Shown in pieces: positions 32,177 through 63,390 of a stretch of 64,000 bases of DNA. The stretch lies in IMG/VR virus record IMGVR_UViG_2974622612_000001, positions 6,031-70,030 of that record, one strand, 5' to 3'. The notes under the pieces are model-generated. The model searched no databases and was not told the origin of the DNA. It was given only the letters and a program-made list of their open reading frames with translations. Numbering within the stretch: position 1 is the stretch's first letter; the number at the start of each line of letters is the position of its first letter. The position numbers were made by a program, and so were the translations under genes. This stretch comes from a virus (taxonomy: Duplodnaviria; Caudoviricetes).

Positions 32177-32252
32177 GCGGGCGCGTTGTAAAGACAACGG
32201 GAATGTCATTCTGGATTGCCAGAGCATGCGAGTTCGATTCTCGCCGTCCAAC
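32177..32252 (+). ncRNA. tRNA-like cloverleaf (degenerate; not a canonical tRNA)
   Basis: Perfect T-arm GCGAG-TTCGATT-CTCGC; 5' GCGGGCG partly pairs with CGTCC; two further hairpins; 76 nt, intergenic. Confidence 0.45.
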
Positions 32253-33666: not shown

Positions 33667-33980
33667 TGGACCCCGACGCAACGCTCGCGGAACTGCGCGG
33701 CGCAATCGCAGAAGGCGACTTCGAAACGGCGGCAACGCATTTCGAGGCGCTAGACGCATGGCTGAGCCGTGGCGGGTTCGTCCCCCACGACTGGCAACAC
33801 CGACAGTCTCCGGCCATGATCGTGGTCGAGGACAAAGAGCAAATCAGCGCGCTCACTGAGGCATTCGTGATGAGCGACATGCACAAGCTGCGCGTGTGGA
33901 TTGACGGAGATCGCGTCAAGTTCAAGGTCAACGAGCACTCATGGTCACCACCCATGGGCCGGATACAGGAGCCGTACTAA
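33666..33980 (+). CDS. Hypothetical protein
   Basis: TGATG coupling; MDPDATLAELR...WLSRGGFVP. Confidence 0.7.
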   Translation: MDPDATLAELRGAIAEGDFETAATHFEALDAWLSRGGFVPHDWQHRQSPAMIVVEDKEQISALTEAFVMSDMHKLRVWIDGDRVKFKVNEHSWSPPMGRIQEPY

Positions 33981-34282
33981 TGCACATCGATCTAGACTGC
34001 ACGACAGTCTCAACGTCCGAGCGCACGATCAGCTTGGACATGATCGCGGACGAAATCGACCGGGCCGCAAACAATCTTTACAACTCAGTCACAACGTTCA
34101 AACGTCACCCGACGTACGACAGTCGGGCGAACCTGCTGGCACGTGCCAACGAGCTTTCCGGCATGTTTCACCTGGCGCTGAAACTCAACGGGTACAACGA
34201 ATTCAGCGCGCAAACCCGCCAGAGAGTGCAGGCTGCACGTGAGGCAGTCGAATCGCTCTACAAAGCGAAGCCAATCACATAG
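33980..34282 (+). CDS. Hypothetical protein
   Basis: AGGAG RBS; TAATG coupling. Confidence 0.65.
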   Translation: MHIDLDCTTVSTSERTISLDMIADEIDRAANNLYNSVTTFKRHPTYDSRANLLARANELSGMFHLALKLNGYNEFSAQTRQRVQAAREAVESLYKAKPIT

Positions 34283-34289
34283 CACGGAG

Positions 34290-34323
34290 GCCGTGTTGGG
34301 GAACTGGGTCAAACCAACACGGC
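34290..34323 (+). promoter_or_regulatory. Conserved-loop hairpin, copy 1
   Basis: GCCGTGTTGG-GGAACTGGGTCAAA-CCAACACGGC. Confidence 0.75.
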
Positions 34324-34373
34324 GCGACGGGTATACAACAGGGATACCCGCACGGTTGATAGGAACCGGACAA

Positions 34374-34691
34374 ATGAACGACAAGATTAAGACGCTTCGC
34401 CCTCGTTTCGTCGGCAAAAGCGAAGTGCGAGCGACCATTCAGCGCATCGGTAACACGCGCAAGATCAAGGTCACGGTGCTGACGTACTCGCCTCTGGGCG
34501 TCACGTTGGCAGCCGTCGAGAGGCGCGCGAAGGAACTCGCGACCGCCGAGGCAATCAAGCGCGGCGCTTCTAGCGCCGACTGCACCGTGCTCCACGGTGG
34601 AGAAATCCGGCACAACGCGACGGACTCGACCGGCAAGTCCAGGCCGATCCGCGTGCGTTCGCAGACGTTCTACTTCGCTGCGGTCGATTAG
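34374..34691 (+). CDS. Hypothetical basic protein
   Basis: AGGA upstream; lies between the two conserved hairpins. Confidence 0.7.
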   Translation: MNDKIKTLRPRFVGKSEVRATIQRIGNTRKIKVTVLTYSPLGVTLAAVERRAKELATAEAIKRGASSADCTVLHGGEIRHNATDSTGKSRPIRVRSQTFYFAAVD

Positions 34692-34725
34692 CCGGTGCCT
34701 GTCAGACGCCAGGTGTAGCGTCGGA

Positions 34726-34759
34726 GCCGATCAGGGGAACTAGGTCAAACCTGATCGGC
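34726..34759 (+). promoter_or_regulatory. Conserved-loop hairpin, copy 2
   Basis: GCCGATCAGG-GGAACTAGGTCAAA-CCTGATCGGC. Confidence 0.75.
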
Positions 34760-34812
34760 GCGAGAATGCTCACGGAATTCAGAGCGTTCTTAAGTGGACT
34801 AGCCCAGTTGGA

Positions 34813-34821
34813 TGCTAGGCT
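34813..34821 (+). promoter_or_regulatory. Extended -10 promoter element TGC-TAGGCT
   Basis: Intergenic, 52 nt before ATG 34874; the same ATGCTAGGCTGG occurs at 60347. Confidence 0.5.
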
Positions 34822-34873
34822 GGTTCGTGAGTCGGAAAGACCGGCTCACAATCGCAAGAGAAACGGATTCGAA

Positions 34874-36361
34874 ATGACACAGGAAACCATTCCCTACCTG
34901 CACGGAAACTGCATGATCGGTGGCGTGATCGGTGGCGCGGTTCTGCTCAACAACGGGCTGAGCGCGTACACGGACGCCAACGGTGTGCTGGTGGTGACCG
35001 ACAGCAAGGGACAGGTGCTCCCTCCGGCCATGCTGGACGCCAAGAAGCACGCGGAAATCGAAGCCGCGCGGGCCAAGCAGCCCGGTTGGCGACCGCCGTC
35101 GTGGTGGTTCGACGGTCGTCTGGAAGACCCCAAGCGCCCGTCGCACTACGCCGGGTACCTGCCCGTCTCGCTCGTCAAGGAGCGCCTGTTGAACTGGCAG
35201 GCTCTCGACGGCAACGTGAAGGTGTCCACGATGCTCGACGTGGTTGATCCCAACGGGGACGGCACCAGCTACATCAAGGTGCCCGTCGAATTCCCGGTGT
35301 CGATCTACAAGGGCGTCATCCGCGAGGACAAGCTGCGCGACCTGTACGAAAGCTGGTGGGCCACCGGCCAGGTCGATCAGGACGCGCTCAACGCGGTTGT
35401 GCTGGGTATGCACTCGGACGAGTACACGCAGCACCAGCTCGACCAGACGTTCATCACGGAGACCGCGAACATCATCGGCGCTGCCGGTGGCGAACTCGGA
35501 ATCACCAGCGCGTTGGTCCTGCGCGGTGGTCGTGTCGCTTCCATGGAAATCTCGATTCCCGAGGAACTGCACGACGAGAAGACCGGGTTCGCGTTCCGAC
35601 CGAATCTCGTTGTCAGCACGTCGTTCAACGGCACGCTGCCGACAAGCTGGACTCGCACCATCACGGCGACCGTCTGCGACAACACGTTGCAGTACGCGTT
35701 GTCACAGGCGGGCGAGACTGGCAAGTACAAGATTCGGCACACGAAGAACTCGCTGGTTCACATCCGCGATGCCGTGCAGGCGTTGGGTCTGATCCACCAG
35801 CAGGCCGACACGTTCACGGAGACCCTGCGCAGTTGGTCCGAGACCGAGGTCACCGAGAAGCATTTCCAGTCTTGGCTGGACGCAATGTATCCGGTGCCCG
35901 ACGTCAAGACCGAGGTCATCCTGTCCGAGCAAGGCGAGAAGATCGGCGAGAAGGTCAAGACCAACTCGCAGTCGCTCGTCCTGAACAAGCGCGACCGTCT
36001 GATCCAGATGTGGGATTCGGACCCGCGCGTTGTCGGTCCCGAGGGCCAGTGGAAGAACTCGAAACTGGCTCTGGCGCAACTGGTCAACACGTTCCAGCAC
36101 CATGAGCAGATGGTCAAGGGCGTGAAGGCGTTGGGCGGCAACAAGTTGCAGGCGCGTGTCGAGACGAACGCGTTCAAGGCGCTCAAGGCCGACCGCAACG
36201 GCGAGTCCGAATTCGCCAAGGCCGACCGGCTCGCCATGGAGAAGCTCGACCTGATCCTGGCGAACGACGAAGCCGCGCAGAAGGTGGCCGTGCCGGTGGG
36301 CGCTCCCACGACGAAGGCTCCGGCCAAGTCGCGCGCCAAGAAGGCCGCTGCCAGCAACTAA
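34874..36361 (+). CDS. DUF932 / TIGR03299-like phage-plasmid protein
   Basis: LRGGRV...STSFNGT...TVCDNTL...IRHTKN motif series; strong codon bias. Confidence 0.8.
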   Translation: MTQETIPYLHGNCMIGGVIGGAVLLNNGLSAYTDANGVLVVTDSKGQVLPPAMLDAKKHAEIEAARAKQPGWRPPSWWFDGRLEDPKRPSHYAGYLPVSLVKERLLNWQALDGNVKVSTMLDVVDPNGDGTSYIKVPVEFPVSIYKGVIREDKLRDLYESWWATGQVDQDALNAVVLGMHSDEYTQHQLDQTFITETANIIGAAGGELGITSALVLRGGRVASMEISIPEELHDEKTGFAFRPNLVVSTSFNGTLPTSWTRTITATVCDNTLQYALSQAGETGKYKIRHTKNSLVHIRDAVQALGLIHQQADTFTETLRSWSETEVTEKHFQSWLDAMYPVPDVKTEVILSEQGEKIGEKVKTNSQSLVLNKRDRLIQMWDSDPRVVGPEGQWKNSKLALAQLVNTFQHHEQMVKGVKALGGNKLQARVETNAFKALKADRNGESEFAKADRLAMEKLDLILANDEAAQKVAVPVGAPTTKAPAKSRAKKAAASN

Positions 36362-36370
36362 TCGCACACT

Positions 36371-36408
36371 GAATGGGCGGGGATGCTTTCACAGGTCCCC
36401 GCCCATTC
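36371..36408 (+). terminator. 13-bp stem-loop after DUF932
   Basis: GAATGGGCGGGGA/TCCCCGCCCATTC. Confidence 0.65.
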
Positions 36409-58481: not shown

Positions 58482-58971
58482 CTTCAAACCGTCAGGCAAC
58501 GTCCACGGAGAAACCGATCACGTCCAATCAACAGACGTTCACCGGACTGTGGAGGCTCCGGTAGGCGTGTGGACCGACGTGCGCGCTGGACAGGTGACAG
58601 CGGAGGGAACCGTGACGCGTCCCGAGTGGCCGGGAATCCTGTTCGACGCCGACGATCCGACCAAGGTCATCGTCTGGCACCTGAAACCAGCCGTATTCGC
58701 CTGCGGACGGCGCAACATCAAGCCAGAGCAGGTCGTTTTCGAGGAAGGTTCCGGTGCGCCATGGTGCCCGACATGCCTGCACAAAAAGAAACAGATTCTT
58801 CGCAAATCCAAAGTGAAAGGCGGTCGAAAAAAGAAGCAACTTCTCGACCGACTGCACGCGCAAACGGAAGCCAAGCGGTTACCGATCAAAATGCCGCCGA
58901 AGAATGCCACGGACAAATCTACCGACTCTGAAATCGTTTGGCGTGAGAACGATGAAAGAACTGGAAGGTAA
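58471..58971 (+). CDS. Hypothetical protein with basic C-terminus
   Basis: Operon fit; C...CPTC. Confidence 0.55.
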   Translation: MSSDFKPSGNVHGETDHVQSTDVHRTVEAPVGVWTDVRAGQVTAEGTVTRPEWPGILFDADDPTKVIVWHLKPAVFACGRRNIKPEQVVFEEGSGAPWCPTCLHKKKQILRKSKVKGGRKKKQLLDRLHAQTEAKRLPIKMPPKNATDKSTDSEIVWRENDERTGR

Positions 58972-59161
58972 AGCACCGCAAACCTTCAAGCTCATTGGAG
59001 GTCCCTGCGGTGGTGAGACTTTCGAGGCCATAGAGCCGAAGACGATCATCAAGTGTCGCCAGCCGGGAAAAACACCACCGCGATACTGCGTGTATATGCG
59101 TAAGATGGATACAACCGAATACCACCACATCACCGGATGTTGCAACAAAGGAGCAATCTAA
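58952..59161 (+). CDS. Small hypothetical protein
   Basis: LIGGPCGG motif. Confidence 0.55.
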   Translation: MKELEGKAPQTFKLIGGPCGGETFEAIEPKTIIKCRQPGKTPPRYCVYMRKMDTTEYHHITGCCNKGAI

Positions 59162-59382
59162 TGCGAGCGCAAATCTTCACCGTTTTCAAGAAAACCACGG
59201 TCCAAGACCCGCAGTATGCGGCGCAACTGGGCCGCGATGTCGAGACCGAAGGCGCAGCCGTCGAGGTCTACCAGTTCATGTTCTCGACCATGGACGAGGA
59301 ACACGCAAAGTTCGTGTGCCGCAACGAGGATGCGCGCTACGTGTTCACGTCACAACCGATCTGGTTCGGTGAACTCGCCTAA
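59161..59382 (+). CDS. Hypothetical protein
   Basis: AAGGAG RBS; TAATG coupling. Confidence 0.6.
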   Translation: MRAQIFTVFKKTTVQDPQYAAQLGRDVETEGAAVEVYQFMFSTMDEEHAKFVCRNEDARYVFTSQPIWFGELA

Positions 59383-59620
59383 ACGTTATCGCCGTATCCC
59401 AACTGAAATCAACGCGATTCAGTGGACCGGCGATAACCAATTCGACATCGAAGCCTTCGGCGCGAACGTCATCGTTGAAAACGGCTGTCTGACACTGTAT
59501 GTCGCGGCCAACAACGCGTGGTTGCCGTTGGAACGCGGCGAGTGGATCGCCCAAGACGAGCACGGTTTCTATCCGATCAAAGACGACCAGGGGCGTCCTT
59601 TCAACTACCAAGAGGCGTAG
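59369..59620 (+). CDS. Conserved phage hypothetical protein
   Basis: YRRIPTEINAIQWTG...GEWI...FYPIK. Confidence 0.65.
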   Translation: MNSPKRYRRIPTEINAIQWTGDNQFDIEAFGANVIVENGCLTLYVAANNAWLPLERGEWIAQDEHGFYPIKDDQGRPFNYQEA

Positions 59621-59623
59621 GCC

Positions 59624-59980
59624 ATGGGCGACAAAATCTTCATCCCGTTCACCGAGGATGGGTTTGAAAACGGAGGCCAAGCCTACGGAGAACGCACCTT
59701 GCGTTCTGGCCGAGACACTTTCAACGAACGTGGCGGGGCTACCGCTGCTTTCGTGTTGCAGTACACCAACCGCAACCCATGCCCACGGTGCGGTCGGCCA
59801 CTGCTGCGAGGCCAGTACGGGCGCTTCCACCGCGACTACGGCGACGAGCTAGTCCACGACGGCTGTAGCGACTACGAGGCAGCCCATGAGCACCGTGACC
59901 GCAAGTATCGCGTCAGCGGCGCACGCAAGCCCAAGCTGTGCCCCGACTGCCACATGGAACACAACGGAGAGTGCCCCTGA
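59624..59980 (+). CDS. Cys-rich hypothetical protein
   Basis: GAGG RBS; CPRC, CPDC. Confidence 0.6.
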   Translation: MGDKIFIPFTEDGFENGGQAYGERTLRSGRDTFNERGGATAAFVLQYTNRNPCPRCGRPLLRGQYGRFHRDYGDELVHDGCSDYEAAHEHRDRKYRVSGARKPKLCPDCHMEHNGECP

Positions 59981-60123
59981 TGTACGCCTACTGCGTTCAC
60001 TGCCCGATGAATTTCACTTCGGAATCCGTTGACGCCACCGAATCGTGGGCGTTCGACCACGAAATCATGGGTGGCCCAAAGCATGTCGTGAAAATCGAAG
60101 GATACGAGGACCAGGCGTCATGA
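59980..60123 (+). CDS. Small protein
   Basis: TGATG coupling; CVHC. Confidence 0.5.
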   Translation: MYAYCVHCPMNFTSESVDATESWAFDHEIMGGPKHVVKIEGYEDQAS

Positions 60124-60323
60124 CGATCAAGGTGTGCATGGACTGCTTCAACAAGCGATTCCCACACAAAATGCCTTCGATTTACACCTGGGGTCGGCAG
60201 TGCGCCGACTGCAAGAAACCCTGTGCCAGTAGGGGATTGCTCATCAAGATCGACGTACGTCCGAATGCGGAGCCACCACAAGATGTAGGGGTCGTCGCTG
60301 TGGACATGCGGCACAAGTTGTGA
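60120..60323 (+). CDS. Small Zn-finger protein
   Basis: CMDC...CADC; ATGA overlap. Confidence 0.55.
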   Translation: MTIKVCMDCFNKRFPHKMPSIYTWGRQCADCKKPCASRGLLIKIDVRPNAEPPQDVGVVAVDMRHKL

Positions 60324-60328
60324 TACGC

Positions 60329-60356
60329 GCAGGTCAGATGACCTGCATGCTAGGCT
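60329..60356 (+). promoter_or_regulatory. Palindrome GCAGGTCA-GA-TGACCTGC abutting extended -10 TGC-TAGGCT
   Basis: Perfect 8-bp arms, upstream of the primase-helicase operon. Confidence 0.6.
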
Positions 60357-60389
60357 GGCTGGTCTAGCCTACCGGACGGAGCTAGAGGT

Positions 60390-60644
60390 ATGGACCCCGA
60401 CGAAGTTTCGGCACGCGCCAAGTTCGAATTCGAAGCTCGCGCAGCGATGTTGACCGAAAACATGCAGACGGTTGTCAACTTCATGCAGCGCATCGTGGAA
60501 GAAATGCCTAAGAAACAGGCGCAGATGGAAAGGATGCAGCATGGTGACATCTTCGCTTTCGCCAACTGGCTCAAAGATTTTGAGCGTGAGTCGGTCCTTT
60601 TCGCTGAGCTTGCACAGGTAATCCGCAAGCATGAGCATGCCTGA
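60390..60644 (+). CDS. Hypothetical protein
   Basis: GAGGT RBS. Confidence 0.7.
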   Translation: MDPDEVSARAKFEFEARAAMLTENMQTVVNFMQRIVEEMPKKQAQMERMQHGDIFAFANWLKDFERESVLFAELAQVIRKHEHA

Positions 60645-63390
60645 GAAGAAACAACCTCGTTCACTTTCACCCTTCCGAGACAGTTGGAAGCTGTATCGGA
60701 AGGCGAATTGGTTTGGAACGCTGCCGCTTCCAGCGAAGAAGAAGAACCCGCCACCGACAGGCTTCACCGGTCACGCGGCACCTTGGCCGCAGAAGGCCGA
60801 GTTTGAACGTTGGCTCAACGGCGAGGACGCCGACAAATACCGTCGCGGCAACATCTGCCTACGGCTGGGCGGCGTTGATTCCGAGTATGAAGTCATCGGA
60901 ATAGACGTAGACCATTACCTCAAGGGAGACAAGGAAAAACGTGGTGGAGAACAGCTACAAGCACTTGAGAATGCACATGGTCCGCTGCCTGATACGTGGA
61001 TTAGTTCGGCGCGAACTGACGGCGTATCCGGCATTCGATATTACCGGGTCCCTAGAGGGCTGGCATTTCGAGGTCAGGTCGAAAAAGACATCGAATGCAT
61101 CCAGAAGGGCCACAGATTCGCAGTCGTTTGGCCGTCGTTCAACCCCGACTCTCAGAGCGATTACTGGTGGTTTCCACCAGGAACGCCGCTCACAACGCAG
61201 GGCAGGCTAGCTTGGACGCCGGGGGAAATCCCTGACGCAAAACAACTTCCGCTACTGCCCGACCAATGGATCGACTTCCTGACGCGTGGCCGCATGGAAG
61301 CGGGCAAGGTCGAAATCGACATGGATTCGTCGGTTGACGACATCTATGCGTGGGCCGATGAGAAATTCGGTAAAGACGAAGACATGTGCTTTCGGATGAA
61401 AGAGAAGGCCGAGACTCATGTGAAAAAGATCGAAACCGAAGCCACATCGCATCCTCTGTTGATTGCTGCTCACCGCAACATCTTTCATTTGGCCTGTGAA
61501 GGGCACAAGGGGTGGGCATCTGCCGTCAACATGATTGAACAGGCGTTCGTGAAAGTTGTCACTGAGCGTGATAAACGATCTATCGATGAACTGCGTGGAG
61601 AAATTTTCCGCAGCAGAATCAACGGACTCCGCAAAGCCAAGGCAACCGTGGACGCCAAGATTGCTGCCGGTGCCGAGGGCGTACCGGCTCGCGATCTGGA
61701 ATGTGGGTCCAACGACGACCAGGGCATACCGCTGTTGGGAGGGTCGGCATCCCCGCCAGGGTCGAACCTGTTCGACATTCCACGAAAACAAAGCAGTCCT
61801 GCGTCGGAATACAGACAAAACGACGATGGCAACGCGGATCACTTCATAGACATCTGGTCCGATGCAAACGTGGGACCGGCTGTGCGCTACGTCGAAGGCT
61901 ATGGCTGGCTGATTTGGCACAACGGCGATCACGGTGAGCGTCAACCACACTGGGAAGTGGACCCCGAGGGTCAAGGCACCATGCGCCAGATGTTTCGATA
62001 CGTGCGCGACAAGCAAGAAGACTACGCCGAGAACCTGCACGTTGATTACGTCAATGCAGCACGTGCGCTCGCGCAGCAGACACCAGGCGTGAGCGCACAG
62101 GATGTGCGTGACGCCAAGAGTGCATGGAGTGCGTGGAACAAGTTCGCGCAGTCGAGTGGAAACAATCGCAACGCAGACAACGCGATCAAAGCGATTCGTA
62201 CGCACGCTGGCATCTGTGTGGACATCAATAAGTTGGATGCACGGCCTGAGTTGCTTGGTGTCGCCAACGGTGTGATTGAACTCAACCCCGATGGCGCGAA
62301 GCTGCGACCAGCAGAGCCAGAGGATTACATCACGCTTAACACTGGTGTACCTTGGCTTGACCCGAAAGAGATTCCAAACACAGGCCAGAAGCTCTGGAAT
62401 GACTATCTTGACAAGTTTCTGCCGGATCAAGAGTACCGCAAGGTAGTACAGATGATCCTCGGTCACGCGTTGATCGGTGGAAACCCGCACAAGAAGCTGA
62501 TCTTCTTCCACGGACCTACGAACACAGGCAAATCGGTTTTGGCATCGATGCTCAATGAAGTGTTGGGCGACTACGCGAAGATGGTCAACAAGACCATTTT
62601 CCAGAATCACAAGCTCAATCCGATTCTGGCAGAAGCTTTGTCGAAGCGTGTAGTCATTCTCAACGAGATTTCGGGAGACAATCGCAACGGCTTCGCACCC
62701 GATGTAATTAAGTCGCTTTCTGGTGGATCGGATACGGTACAGGCAGAACTCAAGGGCAAGAACGCCACAGTTGATAAAATCCCGATGTTTCTGTCTATCG
62801 TTGTAACCAACGTGGCTCCCAGCATCGAAGGGCTTGACAAGGCTCTTATTGAACGTATCCGCGTCATCAATTTCGATCACTCTGAAGAAAACCCTGACGA
62901 CACAATCGCAGCACGAATGCGCAGAGAATCACCTGTGGCCGTGCTCAATTGGTTGATCGAAGGCTACAACCTGTACTGCAAGCAAGGCAGGCGCTTCCCA
63001 GAACACGAACGGATGCTGCAAGCGACCAAATCATTTACGTCATCCATGGACATGATTGCAGCGTTCATCGAAGACGAAGTTGAAACGCACACCCACATGG
63101 GACGCGTCAACGTGCGCTGGCAAGACAGTCCCGAATGGGTACTCACGCCAGCGCAGATGAATACGGCCTACGAACAGTGGTGCGAAACAAATAAGATTCC
63201 ACACAAGGAACGCATTTCTCAGTACCGACTCACTTCACGCCTACAGGAATTGGGATTCATTTACCGACAGGCGCGAATTCAGAAGAAATCCAGCAAGTAT
63301 TTCTTGGGCGTCAAACTCAAGCACAAACAATTCGGAACCAACGTCAAACCGGACGGCAGTCTGAATATCCCAGGAATCACAGGAGATTGA
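60631..63390 (+). CDS. Primase-polymerase / SF3 (D5-like) helicase fusion
   Basis: N-terminal IGIDVDH and SSART; RQNDDGNA, ELLGVANGVIEL, GPTNTGKS, ILNE, IVVTN. Confidence 0.9.
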   Translation: MSMPEKKQPRSLSPFRDSWKLYRKANWFGTLPLPAKKKNPPPTGFTGHAAPWPQKAEFERWLNGEDADKYRRGNICLRLGGVDSEYEVIGIDVDHYLKGDKEKRGGEQLQALENAHGPLPDTWISSARTDGVSGIRYYRVPRGLAFRGQVEKDIECIQKGHRFAVVWPSFNPDSQSDYWWFPPGTPLTTQGRLAWTPGEIPDAKQLPLLPDQWIDFLTRGRMEAGKVEIDMDSSVDDIYAWADEKFGKDEDMCFRMKEKAETHVKKIETEATSHPLLIAAHRNIFHLACEGHKGWASAVNMIEQAFVKVVTERDKRSIDELRGEIFRSRINGLRKAKATVDAKIAAGAEGVPARDLECGSNDDQGIPLLGGSASPPGSNLFDIPRKQSSPASEYRQNDDGNADHFIDIWSDANVGPAVRYVEGYGWLIWHNGDHGERQPHWEVDPEGQGTMRQMFRYVRDKQEDYAENLHVDYVNAARALAQQTPGVSAQDVRDAKSAWSAWNKFAQSSGNNRNADNAIKAIRTHAGICVDINKLDARPELLGVANGVIELNPDGAKLRPAEPEDYITLNTGVPWLDPKEIPNTGQKLWNDYLDKFLPDQEYRKVVQMILGHALIGGNPHKKLIFFHGPTNTGKSVLASMLNEVLGDYAKMVNKTIFQNHKLNPILAEALSKRVVILNEISGDNRNGFAPDVIKSLSGGSDTVQAELKGKNATVDKIPMFLSIVVTNVAPSIEGLDKALIERIRVINFDHSEENPDDTIAARMRRESPVAVLNWLIEGYNLYCKQGRRFPEHERMLQATKSFTSSMDMIAAFIEDEVETHTHMGRVNVRWQDSPEWVLTPAQMNTAYEQWCETNKIPHKERISQYRLTSRLQELGFIYRQARIQKKSSKYFLGVKLKHKQFGTNVKPDGSLNIPGITGD

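Follow-up and report, generated by a model that had tools for sequence, protein, structure and literature searches.

What is a hairpin doing that occurs twice beside small phage genes, with nearly the same 14-nt loop displayed on two different stems? The locus lies in a 70,030-bp virus record, of which bases 6031-70030 form the 64-kb stretch analysed here (the window). The window phage is a Barnyard-like (cluster H) mycobacteriophage. Mycobacterium phage Barnyard itself belongs to subcluster H2, and the DNA identity between the two is ~84% over the region of interest. All genes in the hairpin region of the window are on the + strand, and the features around the two hairpins are as follows.

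33941-34282, + strand: upstream gene, Barnyard gp54-like (PHROG 21856), with a homologue in Wildcat gp168
34290-34323, + strand: hairpin copy 1, 10-bp stem, 14-nt loop with G at position 7, trailer G-CGA
34328-34367, + strand: two small hairpins predicted by folding, at 34328-34349 and at 34352-34367, in the space from copy 1 to the gp55-like start
34374-34691, + strand: bracketed gene, 105 aa, Barnyard gp55-like, between copies 1 and 2
34726-34759, + strand: hairpin copy 2, 10-bp stem, 14-nt loop with A at position 7, trailer G-CGA
34762-34791, + strand: hairpin B, 2 nt past copy 2, with a U-rich end (UUCUUA); its position is conserved (fold and ten-phage alignment)
34794-34821, + strand: promoter-like site of the DUF932 operon, with the -35 within the near-palindrome TGGACTAGCCCA, then an extended -10 (TGC TAGGCT)
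34874-36361, + strand: DUF932 gene (PF06067, domain match E 8e-24)

The two hairpins and their constraint in the window phage

The initial annotation described two hairpins whose loops agree at 13 of 14 positions and whose stems differ by four compensated pairs, bracketing the gene at 34374-34691 upstream of DUF932, and both the hairpins and the bracketing are confirmed. Each stem has 10 perfect Watson-Crick pairs; the four central pairs all differ between the copies, and all are complementary. Copies 1 and 2 fold at -22.7 and -22.0 kcal/mol (z of -3.5 and -4.1) with the loop left open, and they score 66 and 64 bits with the covariance model R1. The loop is present at only these 2 sites in the whole 70,030-bp genome, where the chance expectation of an exact 14-mer is ~1e-3 each and two exact matches are far above chance. 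The flanks, which were also thought to be shared, agree on the 3' side, where GCGA follows both stems (GCGACG and GCGAGA); on the 5' side CGGA precedes both, with a 1-nt offset in copy 1 (CGGAG vs CGGA).

Copy 1 starts 7 nt after the TAG stop of the gp54-like gene (34280-34282), and copy 2 starts 34 nt after the gp55-like stop. The first of the two small hairpins (34328-34349) begins 4 nt past the copy 1 stem. A second TAG (34716-34718) stands nine codons past the gp55-like stop, in its frame and exactly 7 nt ahead of the copy 2 stem. This is the spacing seen at the other copies, as if the linker between this gene and copy 2 carried its own stop codon. No homologue of the gp55-like gene was found in the other hairpin-bearing phages. 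The start of the DUF932 gene is ATG 34874, rather than the upstream ATG 34766, based on alignment to Barnyard gp56.

The window and Barnyard are collinear across both hairpins. Copy 1 is 100% identical in Barnyard, as are the small hairpins at 34328-34367. In an 18-kb comparison (28-46 kb), the longest run of perfect identity is the 114 nt from 34274 to 34387, against a background of ~80%, and this run is exactly the gap that holds copy 1 and the two hairpins following it. Barnyard copy 2 retains its stem, which has 12 pairs including 3 G-U and is the same as that of the uncultured contig L199; its loop has decayed. The hairpins were annotated as intergenic, which agrees with the ORF layout of the window. 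In Barnyard, the annotated start of gp55 (L001:4271-4666) is a GTG inside copy 1, and the intergenic status of copy 1 there depends on re-calling this start at the ATG equivalent to window 34374. That ATG is probably the true start, since the 78 nt before it are 100% identical to the window and the element is non-coding in the other phages examined. A practical result of this analysis is to correct this likely mis-called start.

One loop on many stems

The same loop is found on different, fully paired 10-bp stems in Barnyard, in cluster V phages and in two uncultured lineages. A first scan of the viral collection, using an 18-nt pattern made of the loop and its closing GG/CC, identified the loop in three lineages beyond Barnyard that lack DNA similarity to the window at this locus, each with its own, entirely different stem. 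The cluster V carriers are Mycobacterium phage Wildcat and its close relatives Cosmo, EniyanLRS, Azrael100 and MaryV. The uncultured carriers are the contig L009/L199 and the group L010/L156/L168/L179 (L010-type phages). Searching with model R1 turned up one more copy per lineage. Wildcat copy b differs at one loop base, in L199 copy b loop position 10 is altered and one pair is G-U, and copy b of Cosmo and EniyanLRS has yet another stem. Further covarying homologs, which the initial annotation proposed to seek with a covariance model, therefore exist in cluster V and in uncultured lineages. The loop consensus is GGAACU-R-GG-H-CAAA, with 12 of its 14 bases invariant.

Alignment A4 contains 9 copies with 8 distinct stems. 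Its pairs are 100% standard, and in 8 of the 10 both partners have changed. Covariation scores 0.93, vs 0.22 for shuffles and <=0.11 with the partners slid by 1-3 columns; the shuffle test is not independent because the aligned sequences were chosen for having stems, and the unbiased control is the distribution of pair counts around loop matches. Scans with 14- to 18-mers of the loop over viral, metagenome and genome collections gave many matches, and the number of flanking pairs around them is bimodal, either 0-4 (chance) or 10-11 (real), with all cases of 10-11 pairs in the five lineages. Loop matches outside these lineages are accordingly taken as chance, and in the genome collection none of the 29 loop matches has a stem. 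The hairpin is a real structured element whose loop is sequence-specific and whose stem covaries. The loop itself is under selection: 12 of its 14 bases stay constant in phages whose DUF932 proteins (those of the window, L199 and L010) share only 32-37% identity. A dispersed repeat was also considered and rejected, since each genome has only 1-2 copies.

Wildcat and Cosmo are 98% identical over the region, and their copies b (L197:3087-3120 vs L223:2493-2526) differ by four compensated pairs and one loop base. Cosmo copy b may be a patchwork of Wildcat copies a and b, arising by gene conversion between copies.

No known family was recognized in the initial annotation, and that view is upheld: Rfam 15 has no match at gathering thresholds in the whole window, and none over either hairpin at E<=10 (34200-34900). 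A search of 151 Mycobacteriales genomes (a sample) with R1 gave no match, and a full-text literature search for the loop strings returned unrelated primers only. The hairpin family is apparently undescribed. The loop may resemble an ECF-sigma -35 (GGAAC) and a sigma-E -10 (TCAAA), and also a segment of 23S rRNA and the tRNA D-loop pattern A-R-Y-Y-N-G-G-N-N-A, where its two variable bases fall at the D-loop variable positions; the last serves as a lead only. Three further ideas for the loop were set aside. For tmRNA mimicry, a 10-nt identity with E. coli tmRNA has no counterpart in Wildcat's own tmRNA. Loop-loop kissing through CUAG would involve only 4 bp and is not conserved in copy 1, and no conserved complement is seen for a pseudoknot with the flanks.

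Strand, position and the elements that share the slot

The conserved loop is on the coding strand in all lineages, including Wildcat, where genes 143-172 are leftward. G-U pairs are present in L199 copy b and in the decayed Barnyard copy 2; these would be C-A mismatches on the opposite strand, which favours sense-strand RNA as the functional form. In the other lineages the distances from stop codon to stem are these.

Wildcat copy a: 7 nt
L010-type copies: 7 nt
Wildcat copy b: 8 nt
Cosmo copy b: 8 nt
L199 copy b: 11 nt
L199 copy a: 19 nt

Of the eight distinct copies, five thus have the stop codon 7-8 nt ahead of the stem, two have it at 11 and 19 nt and one at 34 nt. All copies have a C at +2 after the stem, so that the trailer reads N-C-G or N-C-U. 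In most copies a second small hairpin begins 2-5 nt past the stem; the L010-type copies and Wildcat copy b have a weak one at best. The next start codon is 50-115 nt away.

The spacing of 7-8 nt matches that of known downstream recoding stimulators, and one frame gives the same six loop residues in all copies, with the two variable bases at third codon positions. A signal that stimulates read-through or stalls ribosomes is nevertheless highly improbable. TAG, TGA and TAA are all used as the stop, the frame of the loop relative to the stop varies (spacers of 7, 8, 11 and 19), copy 2 runs straight into another stop and Wildcat copy a does so shortly afterwards, there are no start codons, and the residues encoded by the stem change radically while pairing is kept. 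In view of the stops and the missing start codons, the shared six-residue reading is probably a coincidence, of roughly 1 in 4-5. A coding role was rejected.

Complete lineages carry the hairpin twice, at a separation of 436-920 nt, and the one or two genes bracketed in this way are non-homologous between lineages. In the cluster-H-like lineages one hairpin copy lies 0.1-1.7 kb upstream of DUF932. The window, L199 and the L010 group have in common the gene order of a long replication module (DUF932, helicases, exonuclease, polymerase). A functional tie between the hairpin and DUF932 was considered and rejected: the two share only gene order in the cluster-H-like lineages, and Wildcat has the hairpin without DUF932. 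In Wildcat the copies occupy intervals 161-162 and 159-160, at a depth of 3-5 kb within the early arm.

Operator hairpins bound by proteins classically combine a sequence-specific loop with a stem conserved only in structure, and the two copies per genome lie within early transcripts. This would suit the nut/put-like antitermination that was first suggested, or another regulatory site at which a phage or host protein binds the loop and modifies RNA polymerase or translation. Such a role is quite unlikely, and the antitermination proposal in particular finds little in the data. The copies are deep in operons, directly after stop codons, and in Wildcat they are kilobases from the early promoters; there is no boxA-like partner, and neither the dimensions nor the geometry is that of boxB. 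Clustering of ORFs revealed no co-occurring protein family that could serve as the partner. At 50-115 nt from the next start, the hairpins do not overlap ribosome-binding sites.

The arrangement of genes around the hairpins also raises a role at the DNA level, either as a portable intergenic linker for cassette exchange or as a single-stranded DNA hairpin site (attC-, IS200- or origin-like). The copies form direct pairs that bracket variable cargo genes, and the element is found in the otherwise unrelated clusters H and V. In the L010-type phages the whole stop-to-start linker is present as two identical copies. The near-identical uncultured phages L156 (L156:5023-6469) and L168 (L168:1-1042) have genes rearranged around the hairpin linkers: one gene precedes copy 2 in one phage and follows it in the second, and just one of the two carries an additional Wildcat-gp164-like gene. 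The duplicated linker and the shuffled genes suggest that copies arise by gene insertion at the linker. Later compensatory divergence of the stems, as in the window and Wildcat, would then lower deletion by recombination and mispairing between copies. A DNA-level function as such is very unlikely, since no recombinase or HUH enzyme is encoded nearby, cluster H phages are lytic going by their annotation, and the window and Barnyard do not differ in gene order through both hairpins. Recombination alone would not maintain pairing by compensatory changes. The G-U pairs in two copies and the strict co-orientation with transcription point to RNA and speak against the single-stranded DNA hairpin that the initial annotation listed as an option.

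Expression data are published for Wildcat (Ko & Hatfull 2020, PMC7474061). Genes 143-171 are transcribed leftwards, early in infection, and 11 of the 15 gaps in 155-170 are 80-100 bp. RNA-seq coverage has a 'shark-tooth' form that drops to minima at the ~100-bp gaps, where neither promoters nor terminators are recognisable. Wildcat 168 is among the most toxic genes tested (PMC7474061).

The 215 nt before the DUF932 start were aligned in ten phages. The layout is conserved: hairpin A, GCGAG, hairpin B ending in UUCUUA, a palindromic -35 block, an extended -10 (TGCTAGnCT), a leader hairpin and a ribosome site. The promoter-like block is conserved in all ten of these distantly related phages (the window and the sites in L198-L206), and its conservation suggests that 34794-34821 may act as the promoter of DUF932. 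The -35 sits in a palindrome of 12-14 bp with the consensus TTGGGCTAGCCCAA, which looks like an operator for a dimeric regulator.

The hairpin might be a U-tract-less or factor-assisted terminator or attenuator, which would insulate the bracketed gene or genes and the DUF932 promoter from read-through. The stem is GC-rich and stable (-22 to -23 kcal/mol) and lies right after stop codons, copy 2 and its orthologues are ~35 nt before the conserved promoter-like block, and coverage dips at the Wildcat gaps (PMC7474061). This reading is unlikely. As the initial annotation stated, the hairpins are not ordinary terminators: neither copy, nor any copy in the other lineages, has a U tract, the loop has 14 nt vs 3-8 nt in terminators, and the terminator scan lists neither window copy. 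Termination would also leave the 12 invariant loop bases unexplained. The genes after copy 1, after the Wildcat copies and after the L010-type copies have no recognisable promoter, and full termination would silence them.

The ten-phage alignment places different elements in the hairpin A slot. It holds copy 2 in the window and L199, the decayed form in Barnyard, and a plain hairpin in L200 and L202. In Predator and Konstantine the slot is filled by a stem no longer than 12 bp, with a T-loop (UUCGACU) at its tip and the same GCGAG trailer after it, a look-alike of a tRNA acceptor/T-arm minihelix. The other ~95-nt gaps in Predator share a frame, stop-CACGGnn-[element]-ACGA-[second hairpin], in which the element is an acceptor-plus-T-arm, and window copy 1 has the same spacer and trailer as this frame. 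A scan for T-arms identified seven in the 9-kb Predator locus and six in that of Konstantine, all on the coding strand. L156 and L168 have four or five, adjoining the hairpins and within 2 kb of one operon. Within the window the scan gave a single intergenic case, at 32228-32244. This one has the T-loop TTCGATT in a tRNA-like fold (within 32177-32252), lies before the first early gene and is conserved in Barnyard.

The trailer can be compared with those of real tRNAs. The 22 tRNA genes of Wildcat (L225, Wildcat 58812-63253) have no encoded CCA, and nearly all have a C after the discriminator, then G or T; N-CG is found in about half and N-CT in most of the others. The aligned site, the shared flanks and the N-C-(G/U) trailer together indicate that the hairpin fills the same kind of slot as the tRNA-shaped cassettes. 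The hairpin itself has no T-loop, the T-arm scan picked out other sites only, and covariance models gave no tRNA, tmRNA or other Rfam match to it (E<10). It is an additional, non-tRNA-shaped class in these slots, and the gaps thus use at least two interchangeable kinds of structured core. Since both the T-arm elements and the hairpin occur in one operon in L156 and L168, the two types may not be redundant.

A further hairpin in the window, a perfect 13-bp stem with a 12-nt loop (36371-36408), begins 10 nt past the DUF932 stop. The window-Barnyard alignment breaks exactly at this stop, and the corresponding gap in Predator holds a T-arm element. The hairpin looks like another swapped linker core.

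A putative RNA boundary element and its relation to known systems

The reading that we prefer, and hold tentatively, is that the hairpin is a sense-strand RNA punctuation element for processing or end protection in early polycistronic transcripts, with a loop that docks a factor. A processing or stabilising signal was among the options in the initial annotation, and it is the one that the genomic context favours. It builds on the observed structure, covariation, strand, position and interchange with T-arm elements, and from these we infer cleavage or protection and a reader of the loop. The coverage minima at the Wildcat gaps (PMC7474061) count in its favour as well.

Stem-loops at 3' ends obstruct 3' exonucleases, and bacterial mRNAs are protected by stem-loops at the 5' terminus that leave few bases unpaired. 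The GC-rich 10-bp stem past a stop codon would give the upstream message a nuclease-resistant 3' end, and/or it might set an endonucleolytic cut within the N-C-(G/U) trailer. The second small hairpin that follows in most copies would shield the message downstream at its 5' end. With a cut at the 5' base of the stem, even the minimum spacer of 7 nt would spare sufficient RNA past the stop codon for translation to terminate normally. The near-invariant 14-nt loop would be the docking surface for a trans-acting factor, for which our leading guess is a host RNA-processing enzyme. Interchange with the T-arm minihelices makes the enzymes of tRNA maturation the first candidates, while the coexistence of both element types in one operon and the invariant loop make a distinct reader quite possible. 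Clustering of ORFs at blastp sensitivity between six hairpin-bearing and six hairpin-lacking genomes or loci, in which negatives are partial, found no family with the distribution of the hairpin. One feature that counts against the boundary role is that simple punctuation does not account for there being 'always two per genome'. The probability left over from the readings given here belongs to none of these.

It is possible, though doubtful, that the loop is the recognition site of a novel RNA-binding or RNA-cutting activity of actinobacteriophages, which would act alongside the tRNA-shaped cassettes to punctuate and differentially stabilise early messages, with the paired copies excising or insulating a cargo segment, often a toxic early gene. 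If true, the element would represent a new class among the mRNA-processing signals of phages, and not a variant of tRNA mimicry or termination. The early regions of mycobacteriophages consist of small, often toxic genes with gaps of 80-100 bp, and a 34-nt element offers a handle on how their transcripts are organised. Its size suits direct genetics and pull-downs, and it could also be used as an insulating or stabilising part in mycobacterial expression constructs.

Several known systems resemble the hairpin in part. Motif 1 and Motif 2 of Wildcat (intervals 162-165, 168-169 and 166-168; PMC7474061) are in the same early array (143-171), with the same 80-100 bp gaps and coverage dips. They occupy other intervals, and the hairpin in 161-162 and 159-160 is not described in PMC7474061. 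Intrinsic terminators, including the U-tract-less ones proposed for mycobacteria, also have a GC-rich stem after a stop and sometimes before a promoter; the hairpin differs in its sequence-invariant 14-nt loop, in the lack of a U tract and in having downstream genes without promoters of their own.

The attC sites of integrons and the subterminal hairpins of IS200/IS605 likewise have conserved unpaired bases and variable stems, and flank cassettes in direct orientation. They function as single-stranded DNA, served by a recombinase or transposase of their own, whereas the G-U pairs and co-orientation of the hairpin point to RNA, and no integrase or Y1 transposase is annotated in the flanks or genome parts examined. 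The nut boxB of lambda and the put sites of HK022 are likewise small RNA hairpins in early transcripts; they too have a conserved loop and occur twice per genome. boxB has a 5-bp stem and a 5-nt loop, beside boxA and right after the early promoters, whereas the hairpin has a 10-bp stem and a 14-nt loop, is stop-proximal and lies deep in operons. An N-like partner was not found for it by ORF clustering of hairpin-bearing and hairpin-lacking genomes or loci.

The t-elements of plant mitochondria (Forner et al. 2007, PMC1920247) and the T-arm mini-tRNA cassettes of cluster H are, like the hairpin, structured elements in short co-transcribed gaps, after stops and with an N-C-(G/U) trailer, and the hairpin occupies the same aligned site as the T-arm minihelices of Predator and Konstantine. 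It differs from them in having no T-arm and no cloverleaf, and in its own 14-nt loop cap. The hairpin belongs with these intergenic structured elements that punctuate or stabilise transcripts, and there is a fair chance that the mechanism by which its loop is read is new.
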